Shown here in pieces: positions 19,697-40,836 of a stretch of DNA of 64,000 nucleotides. The notes beneath the pieces were generated by a model that saw nothing but the letters and a program-made list of their open reading frames with translations, did no database searches and was not told the origin of the DNA. Origin of the DNA: Eledone cirrhosa (taxonomy: Eukaryota); NCBI GenBank assembly GCA_964016885.1, contig OZ024763.1, positions 9,982,001-10,046,000 on the forward strand. The letters run 5' to 3'. The position numbers and the translations under genes were made by a program. How positions within the stretch are numbered: the stretch's first letter is position 1; each line of letters begins with the position of its first letter.

Positions 19697-21311
19697 CTTC
19701 TTCTTCGCCACTTATTCCTGAGAGGGTCATGGAGAAAGAGTCCTCAAACATTCCCTCCAGCGGGTCCTATCTGACGCAACCATCTCCAGTGGGTCCTATC
19801 TGAAGCAACCATCTCCAGCAGGTCCTATCTGAAGCAACCATCTCCAGCAGGTCCTATCTGACGCAACCATCTCCAGCAGGTCCTATCTGACGCAACCATC
19901 TCCAGCAGGTCCTATCTGAAGCAACCATCTCCAGCAGGTCCTATCTGACGCAACCATCTCCAGCAGGTCCTATCTGAAGCAACCATCTCCAGCAGGTCCT
20001 ATCTGACGCAACCATCTCCAGTGGGTCCTATCTGAAGCAACCATCTCCAGCAGGTCCTATCTGACGCAACCATCTCCAGTGGGTCCTATCTGAAGCAACC
20101 ATCTCCAGTGGGTCCTATCTGAAGCAACCATCTCCAGCAGGTCCTATCTGACGCAACCATCTCCAGTGGGTCCTATCTGAAGCAACCATCTCCAGCAGGT
20201 CCTATCTGACGCAACCATCTCCAGTGGGTCCTATCTGAAGCAACCATCTCCAGTGGGTCCTATCTGAAGCAACCATCTCCAGTGGGTCCTATCTGAAGCA
20301 ACCATCTCCAGCAGGTCCTATCTGACGCAACCATCTCCAGCAGGTCCTATCTGAAGCAACCATCTCCAGCAGGTCCTATCTGACGCAACCATCTCCAGTG
20401 GGTCCTATCTGAAGCAACCATCTCCAGCAGGTCCTATCTGACGCAACCATCTCCAGTGGGTCCTATCTGAAGCAACCATCTCCAGCAGGTCCTATCTGAA
20501 GCAACCATCTTCATTTGATCTGTCTGGATCCGCAAGCGAGACCAGCCGAGGTCATGAATGTTATCCAACCATGTTGGGTCTCCTGCCAGTTGGTTTTGCT
20601 TGTAAGATATATCCAGCAGTTATTTTCTCCGACATTCTAACCACATGCCCTTAGTATCAGAACTGTGATTTCTCATTCATAGAAGTAGCGGCTCTACCTG
20701 GAGTGACTCTCTGTTCTCCAAGCTACGCACTCTGTCGAGTAACGTTACTCCAACGACCCTTCAAAGGAACCCCATTTCAGCTGTTTGTATTCGCGATCAT
20801 ATTCTTTCAGTCATTACCCAAGATTCATGACCATAGGTAAGGGTTGGCTCAAATATTGAATTGAAGATTACAAGTTTGGATTTTACACCTACCTCCCTTC
20901 TTCTGATTACTGAATGATGGAGCTGGCGCATTAGTGCGCCAGCTCCTGCAATTCTTGCACTTAATTCAGCCTCCTGCCTTCCATCACTTGTGAACACAGC
21001 CCCGAGATACTTGCACTTCTCCACTTTCGTACTGTCACCTCTCCTGTTCATTATTTTCGAGAACAGAATTGACAAGTGCAGCTGGGCTGGAAGTGGTGTC
21101 ATGACTGGCAGGTGTAGGATCAGTTGGCTGGAATTTGCAGACATCATGGTATTATTTAACTCATCAGGTGATCTCTGATATGCACTTGATAGGTTTGATG
21201 TTGAGTGTTGCATGGCTGGAATGAAAATCAGTGCTGCGAAGACTGAGACACTTGTCCTTTCAAGGAAGCCTGTGCAGTGCACTCTACATGTAAATGGAGT
21301 TCCACTGAATA
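19697..21311 (-). mobile_element. RTE-like LINE insertion with 5' inversion, internal 30-bp minisatellite and (GAA)n tail
   Basis: Minus-strand 'KYLGAVFTSDG...PTLTYGHESW'; inverted RT piece 'LSPLLF...FADI...MKISAAKT' on plus at ~21030-21310; candidate TSD AGTAAATT at 19689-19696 and 21312-21319. Confidence 0.75.
19755..20510. repeat. 30-bp minisatellite (~25 units) GGTCCTATCTGA(A/C)GCAACCATCTCCAG(CA/TG)
   Basis: Directly visible tandem array without spacers. Confidence 0.95.
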
Positions 21312-23079: not shown

Positions 23080-23930
23080 TACATACTGCAATATACACAC
23101 ACATAAACATACCACAGAGACACTCCATATACATACATACACATACTTCATTCACACAAATATACACACACACTCTACACACCCAGCTACTTAACACACA
23201 CTCCACACATATATATATACACCCACACTCACTCTACACATATATATACACCCACACTCATTCTACACATATATATATACACCCACACTCACTACACATA
23301 TATATACCCACACTCACTCTACACATATATATACACCCACACTCACTCTACACAGATATATACACGCCCACACTTACTCTACACATATATACGCACCCAC
23401 ACTCACTCTACACATATATACACACCCACACTTACTCAACACATATATACACACCCACACTCACTCTACACATATATACACACCCACACTCACTCTACAC
23501 ATATATATACACCCACACTCACTCTACACATATATACACCCACACTTACTCTACACATATATACACACCCATACTCACTCTACACATATATACACACCCA
23601 CACTTACTCTACACATATACACACCCACACTCACTCTACACATATATACACACCCACACTCACTCTACACATATATACACACCCACACTTACTCTACACA
23701 TATATACACACCCACACTCACTCTACACATATATACACACCCACACTTACTCTACACATATATACACACCCACACTCACTCTACACATATATACACACCC
23801 ACACTCACTCTACACATATATACACACCCACACTCACTCTACACATATATACACACCCACACTCACTCTACACATATATACACACCCACACTCACTCTAC
23901 ACATATATATACACCCACACTTACTCTACG
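23080..23930. repeat. ~29-bp CA-rich minisatellite (cacacccacactcactctacacatatata)n
   Basis: Tandem array in FBXO42 intron 4. Confidence 0.9.
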
Positions 23931-24007
23931 CGTGTTACCTCAACCCATCCCACCCATTCCACCACACTCTCCTGTTGAATCAGTCATGTGTTGGGTTGTT
24001 TTTGTAG

Positions 24008-24104
24008 GTCCAATGATGTTTGGCTGTTTGATTTTCTGGAGCAGGACTGGCACAAGAAGGAAATCACTGGACCAAAACCAAGTCCACGGTATGGTCAGTC
24101 ACAG
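24008..24104 (+). CDS. FBXO42: FBXO42 exon 5
   Basis: Encodes 'SNDVWLFDFLEQDWHKKEITGPKPSPRYGQSQ'; tttgtag| acceptor and CAG|GTAAGT donor. Confidence 0.92.
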
Positions 24105-24449
24105 GTAAGTGTCTTTCTCTACATACATATTTCACAACATGTGTATCTTAGTAGACCTCCTTCAGTCATGGTTGACCATCTTCCTCTCTGAGGCACATGA
24201 CCAGCAGTCACTTCATGCCATGCCACATGACCAGCAGTCACTTCATGCCATGCCACAGATGTTGTCCACAGCTTCACACCAATGGCATCACAACACATTT
24301 TTTCCAATTTCGTAAACCAGAACAAAATGAAAATAGAGTGTCTTGCTCTAGAAAACTACCTGCCCCTGGTCCAAGAAATGAACTGACGACCTCATGATTC
24401 CAAGCCCAACACTCTAACAACTAAGCCACATGCCTTCACACACACAACT

Positions 24450-25797
24450 ATTGAATGTAGGGGCCAAGAGGCAATTAAGGAGATGAAAAATGGTAAGGCA
24501 GCTGGACCGTCGGGGATAGTTGCTGAGATGCTGAAGGCATCAGGGGACGTAGGGACTAAACTGGTTGCACACATCGTCAATCAAGCTATATATGGTGGTG
24601 TCATACCCAAAGACTGGTGCAGCAGTATTCTCATAAATTGCTACAAAGGTAAAGGGGATGCTCTAGAGAGGAACAATTACAGGGGCATAAAGCGGATGGA
24701 TCAGGTTATGAAAGTGGTAGAAAGGATATTAGCGCATCTGATTAGAGAAAGGGTCAAATTAGATGAGATGCAGTTTGGTTTTGTGCCTGGGAAAAGTACA
24801 ACAGATGCCCTCTTCTTAGACAACTACAAGAGAGGTTCTTAGAAAAGAATAAGCCACTATACTTAGCTTTTGTTGACCTAGAGAAGGCCTTTGATAGGGT
24901 ACCCTGATCTGTCATCTGGTGGTCCCTAAGGAAGCTAGGTGTTGAGGAATGGCTTGTGAGGACAGTGCAAGCTTTGTACATGAGGAATTCCAGATACAAG
25001 TAGGAGTACATCACGGTTCGGTCCTCAGCTCGCTCTTGTTCATTATAGTCCTCCAAGCCATAACAGAGGAGTTTAAGACTGGTTGCCCATGGGAACTTCT
25101 CTATACTGACAATCTGGTTCTTATAGCAGAATCAGTAGAGGAGCTAGAGAATAAATTCTGGCTATGGAAACAGCAGTTGGAAGCAAGAGGATTGAGGGCG
25201 AACCTAGTTAAGACAAAAGTGTTGATAAGTAGAAAAGAGGACAAAACTCTGATTCCGTCAGGGAAATGGCCATGTTCGATATGTAGAAAAAGAACTGGCA
25301 TAAATTCTATAAAATGTACACAATGCAGATCTTGGTTACACAAGAGATGTAGTGGGATAGCCGCAAACTAACAGGTAGGGAAAAATATGTATGCAGTAGA
25401 TGTACAGGGAAATTTGACAGTAGAAGTTGCAGTGATAGACACATTTTTCAAATGCAGGTAGGATCTATAGAAGTGGTGGATAGCTTCCGGTACCTAGGAG
25501 ATCAGATTAGCATGGGAGACAGGTGTTCCGAGGCCATAGTATCTGGAATAAGGACGGGTTGGAAAAAGTTTAGGGAGCTGCTTCTTCTGCTGACAAAGAA
25601 GGGTTTCTCCCTGCATACAAAAGGCCGGTTATATGATGCCTGTGTGAGATGCGTGATGCTGCATGGTAGTGAGACATGGGCAGCAACTGCAGAGGATATG
25701 TGACGGCTGGAGAGAAATGAAGCAAGTATGCTCCGTTGGATGTGTAATATCAATGTACGTGAACAACCAAGCATGGATGAGTTGAGAGAGAAACTGT
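24450..25797 (+). mobile_element. RTE-clade LINE RT fragment (degraded)
   Basis: 'GKAAGPSGIVAEMLK', 'NYRGIK', 'QFGFVPGKST', 'FVDLEKAFD', 'LLYTDNL', Cys/His finger, 'MLHGSETW'. Confidence 0.88.
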
Positions 25798-26040
25798 GTA
25801 CATATATATATAACGAAGGAAGTGTGGTAAGGAACCAGGTGGACCATAACACACCAGAGTACTCAATACCTAGGGTAGTAGAGTGGGTAATAGGAAAATA
25901 TTCAAGACCCCGACGGCAGAATACATATATATATACATATACATATATATACACATATATATATATACATATATATATATATAATATATATATATAATAT
26001 ATATATATACATATATATATATAATATATATATACATATA

Positions 26041-27350
26041 CAGGGTGTGGACTATATTTGTTCACAATTTTCAACTGCTAATTTTATGCAAATTTTTTTT
26101 ACTTCCGTTGTCACTCTTGTCTTCATAAAAACAGTGACTATATTTCCATTATTTATTTTCAGAATAATTGATTATGAATAATTTCTAACCTCCAAATTTG
26201 TGGAAGAGACACGGAGTTCTTCTCGGAATCCGCACCGGGAGGACAAATAAGGAAATTTCAGACTTTCTCAGCGTCAGCAGGAGAATGGTGGAAAAGGTCA
26301 GAAAGGAATTGGAAGATTCAGAATTCGACTACGAAGCAACATCAGAGAGGAAAACACATGATGGACGATCTAACGCCTTCAGAACGCCTGAGTTCGTCGC
26401 TGAAGTTCAGGATATCATCAACAATGAACCTAGCAAGTCGATGCGTGCCATTGCAAGGGAGAAAGGCAGCGTGGATGAAAAGCTCATTAGGCTGGTGGTA
26501 CATGAAGACATTCGCTACGTTTCATACAAGATGAGGAAAGGACAATTTCTGTCAAAGGCGATGCAAGAAAAGCGACTGAAGCACACAAAGAAGCTGATCA
26601 ACAAGTTGAAACACCCACTGGAGCCAGACATGCTGTGGTTTTTCTCCGACGAGAAAAACTTCTGCCAAGACCAGAAGATCAACTCCCAGAACAACAGGTG
26701 GCTCGCTGTCTCATCCAAAGACGTGCCCAGAGTCATGCAGACAAAGTTTCCAGCGACAACATTGGTCTTAGGTGTCGTCAGCAGTCAAGGTGACATCGTG
26801 CCACCTCACTTCTTCCCTGAGGGCCTCAAGCTGAACACCGATGGCTACATCCGCGTTCTAAGCGAGGTAGTAAAGCCCTGGATCGACCAGGTAGCTGCAG
26901 GTAGGCCGTACGTGTGGCAGCAAGACTCAGCGCCCTGCTATACCAGCCGAAAGACCCAAGCCTGGCTGTCAGAGAACTTCGTCGACCACACTTCACCTGA
27001 CATCTGGCCTCCCAGCTCGCCTGACTGCAACCCCCTCGACTTCTTTGTGTGGGGTGCAGTGGAACGAGACACCAACAGATCTAGCTGCAATATGAAAGAC
27101 GATCTGAAGGCCAGGATCACAAGTGCCTTTAGGGGCCTAAGTTGGGGGACAGTGACGAAGGCCTGTAGCCGGTTCCGAGGCCGCCTTCAGGCCGTCATCA
27201 AAGCCAATGGCGGGTTTATCGAGTGAGATCGAAAGAACAAGTCATGAAGACAAACTGACCCAAGTTTGATAAATATATCTTAAAAAATAAAACTACTGTG
27301 TTATTTTTTCCTAGACAGTAGTCTTGCGAACAGATATCGTCCGCACCCTG
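26041..27350 (+). mobile_element. Tc1/mariner superfamily, DD37D (maT/Bmmar1-like) transposon, near full length
   Basis: 27-bp TIRs CAGGGTG(T/C)GGAC(T/G)ATAT(T/C)TGTTC(A/G)CAA with TA flanks. The transposase at 26198-27226 has FSDEK, QQDSAP and SPDCNPLD, with 37 residues between D2 and D3. Confidence 0.92.
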
Positions 27351-27735
27351 TATATATATATACACACATATATATATACACATATATATATATATATATA
27401 TATATAAGATAAGTTATTCCGGGTTGAATCGGAGGTAACTACAGTAAGTAAGGTACTCAATACATAGCAGAGTATAAAAGTTTTAATATAGAAGAGCTTC
27501 TACAGGACTAGAACTGTTTCATTCGTGAGAAATCATCAGAAGCTCTTGTATATTAAAACTTATATATATATATATATGGGATAACAAGTTATCGCTATAG
27601 GTAATCCGGTTAGAGGTTGTGAGTACTCTGTACTTTGGATAGTTTTAACGTACGGCGTTGTTTGACTCAACAAAAGGTTTCCTTAGTTAGATAGCGAGTG
27701 TGAGAGAATTTCCATGCAGGTTATTCTTGGAGTAA

Positions 27736-30021
27736 TAGTAGTGAAAGAGTGAAGAATAACATGGTCGGCTGTACAAAAAGGGTTTTATTTACAGTATTAA
27801 CAATTGTTTCATTGATCAGGTGAGTCTAAAGGCCGCTAATCACTCGAAATTGCACCACTCGACCTTAAATATAGTGTATGTCTCTGATCAAAACATCGGA
27901 ATACTGGAGGGTGTAACACATGTCATTTGTATTTATAGATACATCGGAGAATCAAGTGAATGAAAACAATAACATCAATAATAATAAAGAAGTTAAAATG
28001 ATAAAGATGTAAAACATAAGTACAGAATACGATTGTTGATAATAGTAGTAGTGGTGGTAGTTGAAGTTATAATGGTGAGTGGATGTGTAAAATAGTGATG
28101 ACGGTAAAGATAACAATAACATGAAAAGAAATATGAAATACTTGATATGTCGTATAAATGCAAGAGGTACAGTCAAATCTCAGAGGATTAAAATAAAAAA
28201 TAAAAAATAAGTAAGAGAGGAAGAGATAAGGGGAAGGAGTAGATAGATAGAGAATAAAAAGTGACAGGGGCAGTGATGATATATGGGTGATTAAGGACTG
28301 GCAGACTGATTGTTTTATCTTAATGGAGGTCATGCGAGAGAGAGGGGAAGAAATGTTGGGAGATTTATGATGTTGATTTAATGATTGGTTGGTCAGTTGA
28401 CAGCTAATAATAGTGGAGTGATGTGGAGGTAGTACATTAAAACCCGGGTGGTTCTGCTTGAATTCTGAGATTGCTGGAACGAATCATGTTGGTTTGAAGT
28501 TAGAGAACTTGGTAGCTGCTTTTTGCCTACAGAAAATTGATCTTTCTATTTTGTTGTTAAGCAACGGTTTTGGTATGTACATAGGCATTCTATAAAAAAC
28601 CGTAGACTGGAGAACTCAATGACGCTGGCCAATAAGATCTGGCAGCTTAAGGACGTCAACCAGGAATATGAGATTAGCTGGTCGAAGTTATCGAGTGCAA
28701 GGGCCTACAAGAATGGAATGTCCCACTGCGGACTTTGCAATATGGAGCTGCTCCATATTTTGAAGTATGATAAAATGCTACTTAACAACAAAATAGAAAG
28801 ATCAATTTTCTGTAGGCAAAAAGCAGCTACCAAGTTCTCTAACTTCAAACCAACATGATTCGTTCCAGCAATCTCAGAATTCAAGCAGAACCACCCTGGT
28901 TTTAATGTACTACCTCCACATCACTCCACTATTATTAGCTGTCAACTGACCAACCAATCATTAAATCAACATCATAAATCTCCCAACATTTCTTCCCCTC
29001 TCTCTCGCATCATCTCCATTAAGATAAAACAATCAGTCTGCCAGTCCTTAATCACCCATATATCATCACTGCCCCTTTCACTTTTTATTCTCTATCTATC
29101 TACTACTTCCATGTCCTTAGTCCTACCCCTTATGTTTCATCCTCGAATCCTTATCCTCACTCTCTGTTCCTGTCCCTTACCTCTTCCTCTCTTACTTCAT
29201 CATCATCATTTTACGTCCGCTTTTTCCCTGCTTGCAAGGGTGGGATGGGAACTGATTCTGGCTTGATTTCTACAGCTGGATGCCCTTCCTAACACCAACC
29301 TCATTTACAGTGAGTGCTGGGTGCTTTTTTTGCCGTGGCACCTCCACGACCACTTTGCAGTGGAATGATATGGACCCCAGTCCCTATCATCTCATTTTTA
29401 CAGCTGAGTAAACTGGAGCAATGTGAAATAAAGTGTCTTGCTCAAGGAAACAACACATCACCTGGTCTGAGAATTGAACTCACAACCTTTTGATTGCAAG
29501 GCCAATGCTCTAACCACTAAGCCATGTGCCTCCACACTTATTTTTTATTATTTTTTATTTTAATCCTCTGAGATTTGACTGTACCTCTTGTATTTATACG
29601 ACATATCAAGTATTTCATATTTCTTTTCATGTTATTGTTATCTTTACCGTCATCACTATTTTACACATCCACTCACCATTATAACTTCAACTACCACCAC
29701 TACTACTATTATCAACAATCGTATTCTGTACTTATGTTTTACATCTTTATCATTTTCATTCTAACTTCTTTATTATTATTGATGTTATTGTTTTCATTCA
29801 CTTGATTCTCCGATGTATCTATAAATACCAATGACATGTGTTACACCCTCCAGTATTCCGATGTTTTGATCAGAGACATACTCTGTATTTAAGGTCGAGT
29901 GGTGCAACTTCGAATGATTAGCGGCCTTCAGACTCCCCTGATCAATGAAACAATTGTTAATACTGTAAATAAAACCCTTTTTGTACAGCCGACCATGTTA
30001 TTCTTCACTCTTTCACTACTA
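27736..30021. mobile_element. Penelope-like element 3' end with inverted pseudo-LTRs
   Basis: Arm ~27736-28561 is the reverse complement of ~28781-30021 (the latter interrupted by a SINE). The spacer and start of the right arm encode a Penelope endonuclease C-terminus 'TLANKIWQLKD...YKNGMSHCGLCNME...LLN'. Confidence 0.8.
29851..29965 (+). ncRNA. Atypical hammerhead-like motif in the pseudo-LTR (mirror copy 27792-27906, minus)
   Basis: Stem I CAGTATT/AATACTG, core CCGATGT, stem II TTGATCAG/CTGATCAA around a ~64-nt insert, then GAAAC-AATT-GT-T. Confidence 0.5.
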
Positions 30022-30284
30022 TATATATATAGGATTTTCACCCCGAAACTGGATACCAACCCAGAGTACACCTGAACTTCCACCAGGAAATCTTCGTATC
30101 ATTGAAATTTCCTTTGCTTCTTGCATTTAAATATTCCACAACTCTCTACCACTTTTCCTCTACTACAATCTTCTTACACCACCTTCTTCTTCTCACCCGT
30201 CTATTTTTCACTCCCACCCTAGTACCTTCAATATGCCCAATTCCAACCCGCCCGTCCCCTCAATCTATCTTATTTCTCATTCTT

Positions 30285-30320
30285 TCTTCTGATGAAGGGC
30301 TAGCGTCCGAAACGTTAAGA
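30285..30320 (+). ncRNA. Minimal type I hammerhead ribozyme motif (Penelope type)
   Basis: TCTT-CTGATGA-A-GGGC(TAGC)GTCC-GAA-ACGT-T-AAGA: stem I TCTT/AAGA, stem II GGGC/GTCC, palindromic stem III. Confidence 0.7.
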
Positions 30321-31584
30321 CCCTCTTCCGGCTATATCAAGCGTTAACCTAATATATCCCTTCCATATACTGTACCAATTGTGTTGTTATTTCTGTTTAC
30401 CTTTTACATATATATATAGATATATATTTGTTTCATTTTATAGAATGAAACAACTCTAGTGCTTATATAATAAAATGAATATGCCTAACCCTACTAACGT
30501 ATTGAGTACCTTTTTTAACAGTAGTCACCTCCTAATTTACATTGGGATTCTCTATATATATTATAAAAAGGAAGAGAGACTGTTTTACATAAACATCCTC
30601 TGTTTATTATATAATGAGATTTGCACCTAGTTGCATATAATGAGATTTGCACCTAGTTGCATATAATGAGATTTGCACCTAGAAAGTTCCTCTCTAAGCC
30701 ATAAGTCCGGGCAAGGTTGTTTGTGGAAGACCAACAGTCTCCCAGGTATACCAACTTCTTCTCTCCATGCCACAGATGTTGTCAAAGGGAAAGACAATGG
30801 TTGATACAGCTTGGCACCAGTGACATTACAACTGATTTCTACAATTGAGTACACTGGTGCAATGTGAAATAAAGTGTCTTGCTCAAGGACACAACGCATC
30901 ACCTGGTCTGAGAATCAAACTCACAACCTTCCAATTGCAATTCTAACGTTCTAACCACTAAACCATGCACCTATAGCGAGCATATATCATCATCATTTAA
31001 CGTCCATCTTCTACGCTAGCATGGGCTGGATGTGTTTGTCCCACTTGAGGTAAGATTGCCCAGGAGACCGTATCTCGCTCATACAGAACTGTTTCTGGCA
31101 GGTTTTCTACATCAGTAAACAAAATTGAGACATTTGATCCCATTATATTATTACATAAGCAAGTGTTCAAAAAGAAAGAAGAAAAATAAAAATAAGGTGC
31201 GTAAATTTAAACATTGTGGAGGAGGTATGTTATGCAGTGAAAATTGTTAGAGAGAGTAGAAAAGGCAGAACTTATGATTTGGCAGAAAGACAAGTCACTA
31301 TTTAAACTCAGAAGAAGGAAAATAAGTAGGCATTTTCTGTTTAAATTCCAACTACATATTGATTCTTAAAACATTATCAATATAAATATAGGATAACTAA
31401 TACTTAGTCACCCTATTTACACCAGTGCTCATGTTTTAAAGTATCCTGTCAATTAGATGTCTGTGGTACAGTTACGTGACAACACACCATTAACCCAGCC
31501 AGTGTTTATATCAGTTTGTACGGTGGATTGGGGTTTTTATTTAAGTTCACACATCGACAAAGCAAAGGATAGGCTGTGTTAACC

Positions 31585-32150
31585 AGTGATAGAAGGGGGG
31601 TGAATTAAGTGCAAGAATTGTGGGATCTGGTGCAGTGTTGTGCCAGTTTCAGCATTCAGTAATCAGATGGAAGGTAGGTGTAAACGCCAAATGTGCTCTC
31701 TTCAATTCGATATTCATGCCAACCCTTACCTATGATCATGAATTTTGGGTAATGACTCAAAGGATACAATGGCTAAAATGGGGTTCAGCCAAAGGATCTT
31801 TGGAGTAATGTTACTCAATAGAGTGTGTAGCTTGGAGATCAAAGAGTCACTCTAGGTAGAGCTGCTACTTCTCTGAATTGAGAGATCACAGCTCCAATAT
31901 TATGAGCAGTTGGTTAGAATGTCTCAGGAAAGAATTGCTGGACAGATTTTATGGGCAAAACTAACAGGTAGGAGATGTAGGAGTAGACCTTGAGCAAGAT
32001 AGTTGGATAATATCCATGAGCTTGGCTGGTCTTGCTTGGGGATCCAGCTGAATCAATTGAAGAGGGCTGCTTCTGACGGGACCCGCTGGAAGGAGTGTTG
32101 AAAACTCTTCCCCCACAACTCTCTCAGGAATAAGGGAATGAAGAAGAAGA
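31585..32150 (+). mobile_element. RTE-like LINE 3' fragment, same family as 19697-21311
   Basis: 'FNSIFMPTLTYDHEFWVMT' and a (GAA)n tail near 32140. Confidence 0.7.
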
Positions 32151-33500
32151 AAAGGTTATCCTGAATATTTTCATTGTAACCTGATCTAACCAATGCCTCA
32201 TTGTAATATTGTTCAATCTGGTCAAAATTATACTATTAGAAGATAGTCTAGAGATCCTACTTGATACGTGATCACCTAGGGTGATTGAAGAGATTATTGA
32301 CATAGAAAAGCTGTTCACTAAGTTTATAAAAAGGTTTATAAAGCCCAGTATTTAGTTCAAAAGTGATGTCTAGGAAATTTACTACTTTGTAATTGATATC
32401 TATATTTATATAGTGTTTCTTTGTTCTTTCTAGGTTTCTATTATTACTATCAAGTGTGAAGCAGGCATCATCATGATATAAGCCTCCATTAATGAAAGGG
32501 AAGATGTCTTTTAGTTTACTTAGTAAGAATAAACTTATTAGGTCAGTAACCTGAGCCATATCAAAGTTATCAGGGCAGATTTTCCTGGTTCAGAGGTTCC
32601 CATCAAATTCAATTATAGTCTTCCTTGCAGCTAGGATGATGTCAATTTCAGCATTAGTTAAATTACTTAATCTTTTTGCCATAATTAAAGCTCTGTTCAG
32701 AAGGTTAGGGAGATAGAAGAGTAATAATTGTCTATGTCAAACTGTATAAAGCTCATTTCTCTTTTGTCTTCTAGTTTAGTGGACCAATTTATTACCTCGT
32801 TGGTGTTGTCCTATAAATTCAAGGTTATTTTTTGTTTTATGGTAGGTATTATCCTATCTAGTATCTCTTTGCTAATTTTCCCTACAACTGCCGTAGAGGG
32901 TCATATAAGTCTGAATGGTTTATTATTAAAGTCTACTTTATGGTTTTTTAAAGTAAATCTGAGAGTTGTAGGTATATTAGCTTCCGTATATTTTTCAAAG
33001 TCTAACCTATTAACTATATTCCTCCTCTCATTGTTTATGTCCCTTAGGTTTTTAGGCACAGTTTTTGTTTAATTCTTTATAAATTAAAGATTTGTAGGCA
33101 TGGAAATATTCACTATAAATATTTTGTCATCTAAAACTAGTAATTTTTTTGGTTTTCTGAAATTCCTTATAGTTGAGTTCAAATCATTTAAGAAAAAGTT
33201 CATATATAGAAATGTTTTTTTGAATTTAATGTTCCTGATCATGTTGATGAAGTCCTCAAAACTATCAAATAAAACATTGTGTGGAGGGCTTTGGTAAGTT
33301 TTGAATCCCTATGTCTTTGAAGGTGGTTTGTTGGCTTGCTATTTCTTTTCAATGTTCCAGTTGTAATGAAAGGTATGCCATCTGATTCTTCTGATAAAGG
33401 GTTTACACTATTTATCAGCAGTTTATAGTATGTATTGTCTGGTATGGGTATATTCTTGAGGGACATTGGTAAGTGGTCCTTGGTTAGCATCTTGGTTAAG
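32150..33500 (-). mobile_element. Penelope-like RT fragment (degraded)
   Basis: 'SLKNIPIP', 'GGLYHDDA', 'VNFLDITFELNTGLYKPFYK' and 'NHP' are typical of PLE reverse transcriptases. Confidence 0.75.
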
Positions 33501-33770
33501 GGATTTACTGCTCAACAGAAGGAGCAGCTTAGTATAACAGTTGAAAGTGGATATATCCACTCATATTTTAACAAGGCACATTGAAGCTTAATGTGTTATT
33601 CACATCAAATCTTGCAAGTCACAATATTTAGGGTGTAATCCATGGGGTATGGTGCTGGGAGTTAATAACAGTGAAATCACAGAGCATAGATATTCATTTT
33701 GCTAGCAGGGAAAGTGGACGTTAAAACAACAATGATATATATATATCATCATCATCATTTTATATATATA

Positions 33771-34668
33771 CTAGCATTAAAGCCCGGCGTTGCTCGGGCT
33801 CAGTAAGTTACACCACCCATTTTATGGCAGCACTTTTTTGTCTGCCAGGCACTGGGTGAATGAATTGCAGACATGGACTGCCGAAGCAGGAGCTGCGCCA
33901 GCAGTGACAATTGTAGTTTCGCCTATGGTTCTTATCTCTGTGGAAAGAAGTGTTGAAATGTATTGTTTCACAGTACTTGCGCAACACGCGCGTAGACGAT
34001 GCCAGCCGAACAACAGAGCTGCGATGGAGTTGTTCTGCATGGTTGTCTAATCTGTGTTTTCTAAATTTAAGACAGTAGGGAGGGGTGTGATATGGGGGAG
34101 AGTTAGCTGCTGTTTCTAGGAGGTTTAGTGACCTCAGAGGATATTATTGTGTATAGTAAATAAACTGATACTTCTTTCTTCCATGTTCGTTGAGAGATGT
34201 TTTAAAAAAGATTTATCGCTATTTTTTTTGATGTTGAATAAATTTATCCGTTGCTTTTGAATAATTGTTGTCATTGAAGTAAATAAATGTTTGACCGTTC
34301 CACACTCAAAAACAAACGTTCTCTCTCTCCATTTCTTTCTCCCGAGTTCCTAAAGGAAGTTTGTAAGGAGTGGTTTAAGCGTATATAAGAGAAAGTTGCA
34401 GCATGTATGTAGTTTTATCGAATTTTAAGGGGAGTAGAGAGAGGACATCAGATTGTATTAGAGGGATAAAGCATCATGTATTTAGTTTTATCGATTATTT
34501 CCGTAATTATGGGTGAGTTGAAAAAAATAAATAGTCGTTGACCTAAGTTAGACCATTTACAACATTCTTACAGACTTTGAGTCGAATCAGTTTGAAATTG
34601 TGCAAATGTATAAACATGGAACATGCACACACACACACACACACACACAACCATCTGCCTTTTATAGA
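33771..34668 (-). mobile_element. Non-autonomous Helitron
   Basis: Minus strand begins TC and ends with the GC hairpin AGCCCGAGCAACGCCGGGCT followed 6 nt later by CTAG; inserted between A and T; internal (CA)n. Confidence 0.65.
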
Positions 34669-36109: not shown

Positions 36110-36880
36110 CATTTTACGTCCGCTTTTCCCTGCTTGCAAGGGTGGGACGGGTCCTATTCAGCACAGCATCTCTCCATTCGTCACGGTCCTTCGTCATCTC
36201 CGTGAGTTTCAGCAATCTGAGGTCAGCTCTCACCACCTCCGCCCATGTTTTTCATAGTCTACCTCTACCGTGTCTTCCTTCTACTGGGATTTCTTGGCAC
36301 CTCTTTATCCAGCGGTCATCCTCCATGCACATCACATGTCCATACCATCTCAGTTTTCTCTCCCGCACACCACAACTTATCCCTCTTATACCCAGTTTCT
36401 CTCTCAACTCATCTATGCTTGGTTGTTCACGCACATTGACATTGCAGATGCAACGGAGCATGCTTGCTTCATTTCTCTCCAGCCGTCGCATATCCTCCGC
36501 AGTTGCTGCCCATGTCTCACTACCATGCAGCATCGCGCATCTCACACAGGCATCATACAACCGGCTTTTCGTTCATCGGGAGGAACCCTTCTTTGTCAAC
36601 AGAGGAAACAGCTCCCTAAACTTCTTCCAACCCGTCCTTATTCTGGATACTATCGCCCCTGAACACTTTCCTCTCTTGCTAATCTAATCACCTAGGTAGC
36701 GGAAGCTATCAACCACCTCTATAGATCCTACCTGCATTTGAAAAATGTGTCTATCAATACGACTTCTACTGTCAAATTTCCCTGTACATCTACTGCATAT
36801 GTATTTCTCCCTACCTGTTAGTTTGCCTGCTATCCCACTACATGTCTTGTGTAACCAAGATCTGCATTGTGTACATTTTA
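36110..36880 (-). mobile_element. RTE LINE 3' fragment
   Basis: 'YDACVRCAMLHGSETWAAT...LRWYGHV...GRHGRGR'; ends in an (ATG)n tail. Confidence 0.88.
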
Positions 36881-38536: not shown

Positions 38537-39030
38537 GTGGGTAACTATTATTAAAGGTTTTCAGCATTTGTGTCATCACTATCATCACAATCACCACCAC
38601 CTCCACCACTATCATCACAATCACGACTACCTCCATCACAATCACCACAATCACCACCACCTCCACCACAATCACCACCACCTCCATCACAATCACCCCC
38701 ACCTCCACCACTATCATCGCAATCACCACTATCACCATCACCATCATAATCACCAACACCATCACCACAACCAACATTTTAACATTTTCATTGCTGGGGC
38801 ATGCATTAGCCTTGGACTCACTATGGGATCCTTTTTGAAGCAATGATATATAGATGGATGCCCTTCCTGATACTAACACTTTCAATCACCTCTTACAACA
38901 CCCAGGGATTATTATGGGCCTATCCTATACTGGGATACACACAGCATTATGAGGGGAAAAAGTTTATATATATCCTTGATCCAGGACTCCTTCCACCGAC
39001 TTGTGTCCCTTGCCAGTCTGTGGTCTCCAG

Positions 39031-39600
39031 ATGAGTCTCCAGATGTGGCCAGCTCATCTGTTGTCACTGAGTCTCCAGATGTAGCCAGCTCATCTGTTGT
39101 CACCGAGTTGCGAGATGTAGCCAGCCCATCTGTTGTCACCGAGTTGCGAGATGTAGCCAGCCCATCTGTTGTCACCGAGTCTCCAGATGTAGCCAGCTCA
39201 TCTGTTGTCACCGAGTTGCGAGATGTAGCCAGCCCATCTGTTGTCACCGAATTGCGAGATGTAGCCAGCCCATCTGTTGTCACCGAATTGCGAGATGTAG
39301 CCAGCCCATCTGTTGTCACCGAGTTGCGAGATGTAGCCAGCCCATCTGTTGTCACCGAGTTGCGAGATGTAGCCAGCCCATCTGTTGTCACCGAGTTGCG
39401 AGATGTAGCCAGCCCATCTGTTGTCACCGAGTTGCGAGATGTAGCCAGCCCATCTGTTGTCACCGAGTTGCGAGATGTAGCCAGCCCATCTGTTGTCACC
39501 GAATTGCGAGATGTGGCCAGTCCATCTGTTGTCACTGAGTCTCCAGATGTAGCCAGCCCATCTGTTGTCACCGAGTCTCCAGATGTAGCCAGCCCATCTG
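39031..39600. repeat. 36-bp minisatellite (~16 units) GAG(TTGC/TCTC)(G/C)AGATGTAGCCAGCCCATCTGTTGTCACC
   Basis: Tandem array in FBXO42 intron 7. Confidence 0.95.
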
Positions 39601-40836
39601 TGTTTGTTCATCTTGGTGGTTGTTATGTCGCTGACTCCAGTTTATATTTAGTTGCTTTTCCCAGTTGATGAGAGAAACAGTAAAAAAAAAACAATTGCAT
39701 TATATTTCAACCCTTTTGATACCAACTTGGCCCAAACTGGACCTGGTTCCCATTTAAATTAAAATCTTCCAACATAATTTTATATTAAAACATGTTATGT
39801 TATGATCTTAATAATGAAATAATGGTTAATTTTAGTAAATCCCTCAAAATTCTTCATTAATTAACCATATTTCTAATGAACGATAGTTATTTTCAAAATA
39901 ATCCTTTATTAACTCTTAACATCCTGTAATGATTTAGCAGAAAATATTTAAAAGCAGATTTATTAATTCAAATGTTTGTAGTATTTACTAGTGGACAGAT
40001 TGATTTGAAAACTTTCAGTAAAGATTTGTTTAATGTTTCAAGAATGTCTTGCTAATGTGGTTCCATGTGGTACAGGATGAAAATAGTTAAGCTGATGTTT
40101 GGAGCATCACTTAACCCTACATTACTCTATATATACTATTGTATTTTTGTGGTAAAGGCTTTACCTCACATAAAAATCTTGATGTTATTTATTTTGAGAA
40201 CAATACCTTAACATCAGTATGAGTGGCCAGTTACAGCCAGTTTAAACAGAATGAGGTGAGAGAATTCTGACCGGATATGGCTGGTTTAAATACTAAAGGG
40301 TTAAGTGAAGGTATATTTATCTCTTGTTATGTACAAAACACTATCTGAATATTCCAATATAGATTTATTTTTTAAATTATGTTCTAATCACCATCTTAAT
40401 ATACCAATATTTATCTTTTATTAAGTTTCAAATACCTTTTACATCTGGTAGACAGAAACTGTACAGAAGCCTGCCACATGTGTATATGTGAGGGTGTGCC
40501 TGTCTATCTATGTCTGTTTTTAAGTCTGCACCATGGATACGGCCGGTTTAAATGCTAAAGGATTAAAGGTTCTTACATAAAATTCATAAAATTATGACAG
40601 ATCTTTATTTAGAGAAACACTTTAAAATAGCTTTGTGTCATAGAACCAGGGGCAATTTCTTGCAGTTTGGTATTAACAGGGTTAACTAATTGAAATAAAG
40701 AGTATTTTATTAGAAGTAGAAAAAGGATTAAGACGATAGTATAATTATTGATAGTATCTTTACTTTGTTTAGTGGAGGCTACAGGAGTTGTGTAATGATG
40801 GCAATATAATATATAATTATTTTCTTTCTTTCTTAG

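Follow-up and report, generated by a model that had tools for sequence, protein, structure and literature searches.

A hammerhead motif with a long stem-II extension and a lineage-variable core in Penelope-like retrotransposons of Eledone cirrhosa

The locus and its retrotransposon

The window analyzed here is the whole 64,000-nt stretch of Eledone cirrhosa contig OZ024763.1 (positions 9,982,001 to 10,046,000), and it contains a 5'-truncated retrotransposon insertion with an inverted arm, flanked by (TA)n at both ends (Table 1). About 1 kb behind the end of its GIY-YIG open reading frame (ORF) lies a motif that a preliminary description, made from the letters alone, had read as a noncanonical type I hammerhead. 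Direct reading bears out this layout, with every named part in place: three helices surround a core and are open at stem I, stem III has only 2 bp as a monomer and 8 bp as a dimer, and the mirror copy carries an identical core. The palindromic, dimer-type stem III that had been likened to those of Penelope-type hammerheads is indeed present, and its palindrome is invariant across the lineages of the element. Single-sequence folding was not significant (z of -1.68 and -0.82, with 11/200 and 38/200 shuffles as good). We consider the motif to be beyond chance because of its position at the ORF end, its recurrence in hundreds of exact copies where reversed control patterns gave 0 matches, and its covariation between lineages.

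Sequence features identify the motif as the hammerhead of a Hydra-clade Penelope-like element (PLE) present in thousands of copies. In a full-length unit (L194), the motif occurs twice, 3389 nt apart, flanking an ORF that encodes reverse transcriptase (RT) and endonuclease (EN) and starts ~300 nt behind the first predicted cut site. This single ORF, with RT followed by a C-terminal GIY-YIG-type EN, and the pseudo-LTR tandem are those of the Hydra clade. The same holds for DKT replacing DKG (ADKT in L194) and for the CxCX5C linker with CxxC/CxH around E and N (CNCHLPDKC and CRLC..E..N..CRH in L175), the linker and EN motifs being matched by eye to a published alignment (PMC8557442), while the RWK call rests on one damaged copy, L194, which gives stop-WK. 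Element 3' ends run into (TA)n, and on these motifs and this target preference we assign the element to the Hydra clade. Pfam gave no family for a 576-aa piece of the ORF or for the 95 aa in the window, and a metagenome search returned seven distant relatives (28-38%). In most of these, only a short stretch of DNA follows the ORF, and no convincing long-armed motif was seen. In a tree of 30 endonuclease-end segments, nine rows of lineage D (see below) group together (100/100), C4 and U4 rows are interleaved outside D, and two long rows are unsure. A non-LTR retrozyme was considered and rejected, the motif being tied to the ORF end and the copies dispersed, truncated, and inverted.

Table 1. 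Features of the insertion in window coordinates
Feature	Position	Strand	Remark
Inverted, 5'-truncated element arm with longer 3' tail, ending in (TA)n	27568-28570	-	
Mirror hammerhead copy, same C4/U9 core	27792-27906	-	
GIY-YIG endonuclease, C-terminal 95 codons + stop, 5'-truncated	28571-28858	+	CxxC..E..N..C
tRNA-like SINE	29197-29536	-	later insertion confined to the right arm, extraneous to the element
TATA box TATAAATA	29820-29827	+	32 nt before predicted start
Stem I, 5' strand CAGTATT	29851-29857	+	direct reading, lineage alignment
Predicted transcription start, A of pyrimidine-A initiator	29852	+	inferred from copy 5' boundaries, G excess, D/E replicate
Core CCGATGT, C3-U9	29858-29864	+	C4 = lineage consensus; U9 (29864) private to locus
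U10.1 (T 29865) and stem II, 5' strand TTGATCAG (29866-29873)	29865-29873	+	
64-nt stem-II extension	29874-29937	+	covarying helix AAGGTCG 29891-29897 / CGGCCTT 29922-29928
Inner helix of extension, 3 bp, predicted	29903-29905/29914-29916	+	damaged in window copy
Stem II, 3' strand CTGATCAA (29938-29945) and U11.1 (T 29946)	29938-29946	+	
GAAA/stem III/GUU block	29947-29958	+	GAAA core at 29947-29950
Self-complementary ACAAUUGU, dimer stem III	within 29947-29958	+	
Palindrome ACAATTGT	29950-29957	+	
GTT (GUU triplet)	29956-29958	+	predicted cut after 29958
Stem I, 3' strand AATACTG	29959-29965	+	direct reading, lineage alignment
3' tail to shorter 3' end, then (TA)n target	29966-30022	+	

Rfam gave 16 matches in 24000-34000 at E<=10, none of them a hammerhead, so that this search misses the motif, as had been anticipated for standard searches. 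A plain minimal motif at 30285 was likewise missed (E<=10). This second hammerhead motif (30285-30320, +) belongs to another repeat family, consists of TCTT, CTGATGA, a short stem II, GAAA-CG-TT, and AAGA, and has near-identical copies in L027, L096, and L183. Other hammerhead-like motifs were seen in L154, L175, L024, L046, L179, L048, and L186, with 20, 26, 49, 50, 53, and 88 nt between core halves; one of these families combines a CCGAAGA core with the same ACAAUUGU palindrome. A long stem II may be common in the Eledone cirrhosa genome.

Several further observations concern the surroundings. The two element 3' ends at 30022 and 27568, ~170 nt apart, both run into (TA)n, and the 3' tails are longer than those of 30-40 nt reported from other PLEs. 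Compared with each other, the two arms have six differences inside the 64-nt insert (29874-29937 versus 27820-27883) and only two changes plus one small indel in the ~300 nt upstream. On the strand antisense to the ribozyme, the insert border forms a strong splice-donor-like word, CAG/GTGAGT (27817-27825, +), which is present in lineages A and D and lost in the right arm of the window, and an acceptor-like CTTTTTGTACAG stands before an ATG at ~29976-29997. Elsewhere, the window holds a 345-codon open frame (26189-27226, +) ending in WPPSSPDCNPLD, which we take to be Tc1/mariner transposase-like, three minisatellites (20000-20636 and 23136-24011, 29 nt each; 38925-39709, 36 nt), and an inverted repeat pair (25363-25800 / 36389-36826).

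Lineage variation of the core and of stem II

Clustering of 189 distinct full motifs, from loci that are not a random sample and with a search pattern that required the extension and ACAAUUG, resolved lineages A, A1, A2, B, C, and D, all of which keep these two features. Lineage A has C4 and a U.U at positions 10.1/11.1, A1 and A2 being mixed; lineage B has U4 (26/33) and U.U; lineage C has U4 and A.A. In lineage D, the core is CUGAUGU and is accompanied by G10.1-C11.1. It has 347 exact matches, and U9 is present in 97 of the first 100 listed; a further group with U9 and A10.1 makes up 13/89 D/E copies among the matches listed. Lineages B and C display the CUGANGA / GAAA / NUH core, from which the window copy departs by C4 and U9 and its lineage by C4. 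The rest is constant: C3, G5, A6, G8, GAAAC-AAUU-GU, and H17 stay fixed across lineages, G8, G12, the C3-G8 pair, and A15.1-U16.1 are kept in all lineage majorities, and among 37 lineage-A copies, G12-A15.1 is present in 37/37 and G8 in 35/37. These lineage counts indicate that positions 4, 9, 10.1, and 11.1 drift by lineage, while the catalytic bases are fixed.

The CCGAUGU core, which the preliminary description had put forward as a variant in its own right, does not hold up as a consensus. Exact whole-genome counts in the same 21-letter frame gave A9 in 604/617 matches (CCGATGA 488, CTGATGA 116), and of the 13 with another base at position 9, CCGATGT accounts for 4, two of them the window locus itself. 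Of the 34 copies most similar to that of the window, A9 is found in 31 and G in one, and U is confined to the window pair; in contigs from three runs of one sample, the base at 29864 is A in 13876/13903 of contig depth (99.8%). As U9 is not the lineage consensus, the C4+U9 core is that of a mutated copy. C4 is the lineage-A consensus (33/37 in the anchored sample), and U9, to judge from the copies compared, is that of a separate sister lineage in which it is accompanied by U4. The two window arms share five private changes including U9, and so come from a single mutated template; the shared core, which the preliminary description took to predate the duplication, shows only one common template. 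That CCGAUGU is a functional, selected new core is scarcely credible: both arms share it, and C4 and U9 are each, separately, a lineage consensus, but exact matches are so few (4/617), the two outside the window locus lack its other private changes, and only 1 of 53 readable D/E cores among the matches listed combines C4 with U9. The window copy, in which C4 and U9 coincide with damage to the inner helix, is probably crippled. Decay at CpG does not by itself account for the U4 copies (C>T 116 versus G>A 34, p 1e-11), among which a sub-lineage can be recognized; some scattered U4 copies are probably due to decay.

As for the stem-II insert, the helix proposed within it is part of a structure that is conserved and covaries across lineages. 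In 18 alignment representatives, hand-picked across lineages, 84.5% of the 528 cells are paired as the named structure requires, a value reached by 0/500 shuffles, with slid controls at 26-45%. Both-sided changes occur in 5/12 extension pairs, 3/7 stem I pairs, and 1/9 stem II pairs, a number of pairs that is not above that of shuffles (9 versus 8.0, 183/500). On the same 18-row alignment, RNAalifold returned, unprompted, the helix of the extension together with an inner helix of 3 bp, with 6/8 pairs compensatory, and did not recover stems I-III. The lineages being related, these covariation counts represent few independent events. The insert helix forms a series, AAGGTCG/CGGCCTT, AAGGTTG/CAACCTT, AAGATTG/CAATCTT, and AAAATTG/CAATTTT, and the insert words GUAUU, UGACRCAA, UAG, and UAGAC are conserved. 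Part of the inner helix is lost in the window copy. In the alignments, all sampled lineages retain an extension of ~64 nt that carries compensatory changes. Selection of the insert as DNA, as an internal promoter or enhancer in a tolerant loop II with pairing secondary, is in our opinion very unlikely. The insert word TGACGCAA, which resembles a bZIP site, is kept unpaired or weakly paired in all lineages. In Drosophila Penelope, control sequences lie downstream of the start site (PMC2377424). However, stepwise changes on both sides of the insert helix are a prediction of RNA pairing, although the two roles are not mutually exclusive.

Copy ends and the predicted RNA start

An anchor placed downstream of the ribozyme has 780 exact matches, and 89 distinct copies among the matches listed were used to map where copies begin. 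Of these, 19/89 have their 5' end in 29849-29855, against ~0.25 per base (p 6e-14), 3/89 begin no more than 2 nt from the cut (p 0.13), and 79/89 run through the cut site. A pile-up at the cut site, suggested by 41 copies with non-T before the cut, was not upheld by this anchored sample. TATA-like boxes 30-33 nt before a pyrimidine-A are also found in lineages B, C, and D, and for D/E, the start was predicted beforehand from the TATA spacing to lie 8 nt upstream of stem I. In 89 distinct D/E copies among the matches listed, of 766, 9/89 begin within 1 nt of the predicted start, 3/89 in the 5 nt at the start of stem I, and 4/89 near the cut; 81/89 run through the cut site. In lineage C, the pile-up is weak (~3/30 at the initiator, by eye). 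The Drosophila Penelope promoter is TATA-less (PMC2377424).

The base preceding the start, when it is not C (n=100), is G in 40, A in 10, and T in 50 cases. Untemplated G marks capped LINE-1 RNA, and a G excess before the start is as expected from cap copying (PMC4859970). Of 30 loci viewed, the 13 preceded by G are all 5' junctions (13/13), several of them microhomologies. Microhomology to the inverted partner arm accounts for some of the surplus G, and ATAT, the start word in D/E, agrees with the (TA)n target. It is improbable that the pile-up of 5' ends reflects fold-back of cDNA on stem I, microhomology, or a splice acceptor (CAG/TATT). In favor of such an origin, the two strands of stem I can pair with each other and are used by some junctions, microhomology is seen at several of the G junctions, and lineages A and B are acceptor-like at this point, as is Drosophila Penelope (PMC4209133). 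However, in D/E the ends peak 8 nt before stem I, where there is no AG acceptor, a TATA box is suitably spaced in each of A, B, C, and D, and the arms of head-to-head pairs end at the same base, some ends joining (TA)n directly. Transcription is therefore likely to start at the base equivalent to 29852. With a start at or just before stem I, the ribozyme would likely occupy nucleotides 1 to ~107 of the capped RNA, and since copies pile up at the initiator and not at the cut site, most templates were likely copied uncut.

Known hammerheads and a proposed role

The closest published relatives are the Hydra-clade PLE hammerheads (Craig et al. 2021, PMC8557442, File S2), which are also type I, lie after an ORF with a C-terminal GIY-YIG domain, have a short self-complementary stem III, and are associated with (TA)n targets. 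In 14/26 Hydra rows, a U follows A9 and another precedes GAAA, as here. In contrast, in all 26 rows loop 2 measures <=10 nt and the core begins with CUGA, while here loop 2 is a structured domain of ~64 nt and the bases at positions 4 and 9 depend on the lineage. Hydra-1_Obim belongs to a different family, and two short motifs of our element family are absent from that supplement. Long loops have precedents in the same source, in plant PLE-X (35 nt in PLE-X1_sMoe, 28 nt in PLE-X1_sTam) and in the Naiad "half cores" 35-50 nt apart, but these are about half as long and belong to other clades, and the portions consulted report no conserved internal structure for them. Metazoan PLE pseudo-LTR hammerheads (Cervera and de la Pena 2014, PMC4209133) resemble ours in their place in the repeat and in having a palindromic stem III and a long helix II; they too are predicted to act as dimers and expected to be of low activity. 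They are minimal, however, and lack a large insert, and that paper stresses a conserved G10.1-C11.1 and an extra base after A9, while the G-C is found here in one lineage only.

The substitutions themselves are in part published, so that C4, although a lineage consensus, is no undescribed variant: U4C (in a viroid) and U10.1-U11.1 have been described (Perreault et al. 2011, PMC3088659), U4C lowering activity in vitro yet sufficing in vivo and U.U being the best-tolerated mismatch. Those variants are rare single cases, whereas here they are fixed in whole retroelement lineages. A9U as a natural lineage consensus was absent from the literature searched, although Lunse et al. (PMC5785218), on small dimeric variants of PLE hammerheads, or the supplements of PMC4209133 and PMC3088659 may list C4/U9 variants. 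In the mostly open-access literature searched, we found neither the long extension, nor a lineage-level A9U, nor a TATA-directed start at the ribozyme; what we could not find in print, and regard as new here, is the stem-II extension, the lineage drift at 4/9/10.1/11.1, and the start-site signal in copy ends. Anolis Poseidon PAc (PMC11167929) likewise has two 3' ends and AT-rich targets; its hammerhead requires protein for cutting and the uncut RNA serves as the principal template, but its ORF starts inside the ribozyme and not, as here, ~300 nt behind the cut site.

Folded as monomers, 5/5 usable sequences give P(A15.1-U16.1) <0.06, with rods burying the core, while 4/5 cofolds show an extended duplex in which the palindromes are paired (ACAAUUGU duplex, -6.4 kcal/mol), and a dimer route is known for such hammerheads (PMC4209133; review PMC6765202). 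The reading we favor, and consider rather probable, is that of a decayed pseudo-LTR hammerhead with a conserved, covarying extension, a ribozyme likely placed at the capped 5' end that would cut slowly, and only when dimeric or aided by protein. RNA polymerase II would start at 29852 below the TATA box; the monomer would be an inactive rod until two RNAs pair via ACAAUUGU and complete stem III, and the cut after 29958 would detach the capped leader of 107 nt or, when made in the downstream repeat, the tail at which reverse transcription is primed. Such a slow, concentration-dependent switch would likely sort RNA into uncut template and cut RNA that is translated or degraded. The extension would probably serve as a platform for the element's own protein and thereby offset the weak junction beside stem II.

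Lineages with C4 or U9 have each made hundreds of copies, and this spread of changes expected to lower activity also fits a relaxed need, or no need, for catalysis. We consider it unlikely that the motif is a hammerhead-derived, effectively noncatalytic structured 5' leader for protein binding or translation. U4C, A9U, and U.U, A.A, or G-C are each fixed in some lineage, 79/89 and 81/89 copies pass the cut site among the matches listed, and self-cleaving folds can promote translation, although there in a cutting-dependent manner (PMC13725137). Nevertheless, C3, G5, A6, G8, G12-A15.1, U16.1, and GUH are kept in every lineage majority, stems are replaced by compensatory changes, and the dimer palindrome is invariant. 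Beyond the favored slow-cutting hammerhead, a more specific and only tentative possibility is that the ~64-nt domain recruits the RT-endonuclease of the element and frees positions 4, 9, and 10.1/11.1, making a protein- and dimer-gated self-decapping switch in the very first nucleotides of the element's RNA.

The headline core of the preliminary description is a private mutation. What deserves attention is the conserved long arm, the drift of the core, and the start-site signal. Thousands of copies in a single genome escape motif searches that allow only a short loop 2, and the lineages of the family offer naturally occurring core variants (U4/C4, A9/U9, U.U/A.A/G-C) built on a common scaffold. 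The role of the hammerhead in Penelope-like elements has been stated to be unclear (PMC8557442, PMC11167929). Copy ends point to a start at the first bases of the ribozyme and to mostly uncut templates, and this pattern makes the question testable, as cap removal or translation control versus release from a long precursor. If gated self-decapping were true, copy ends would offer a direct handle on the purpose of the Penelope hammerhead.
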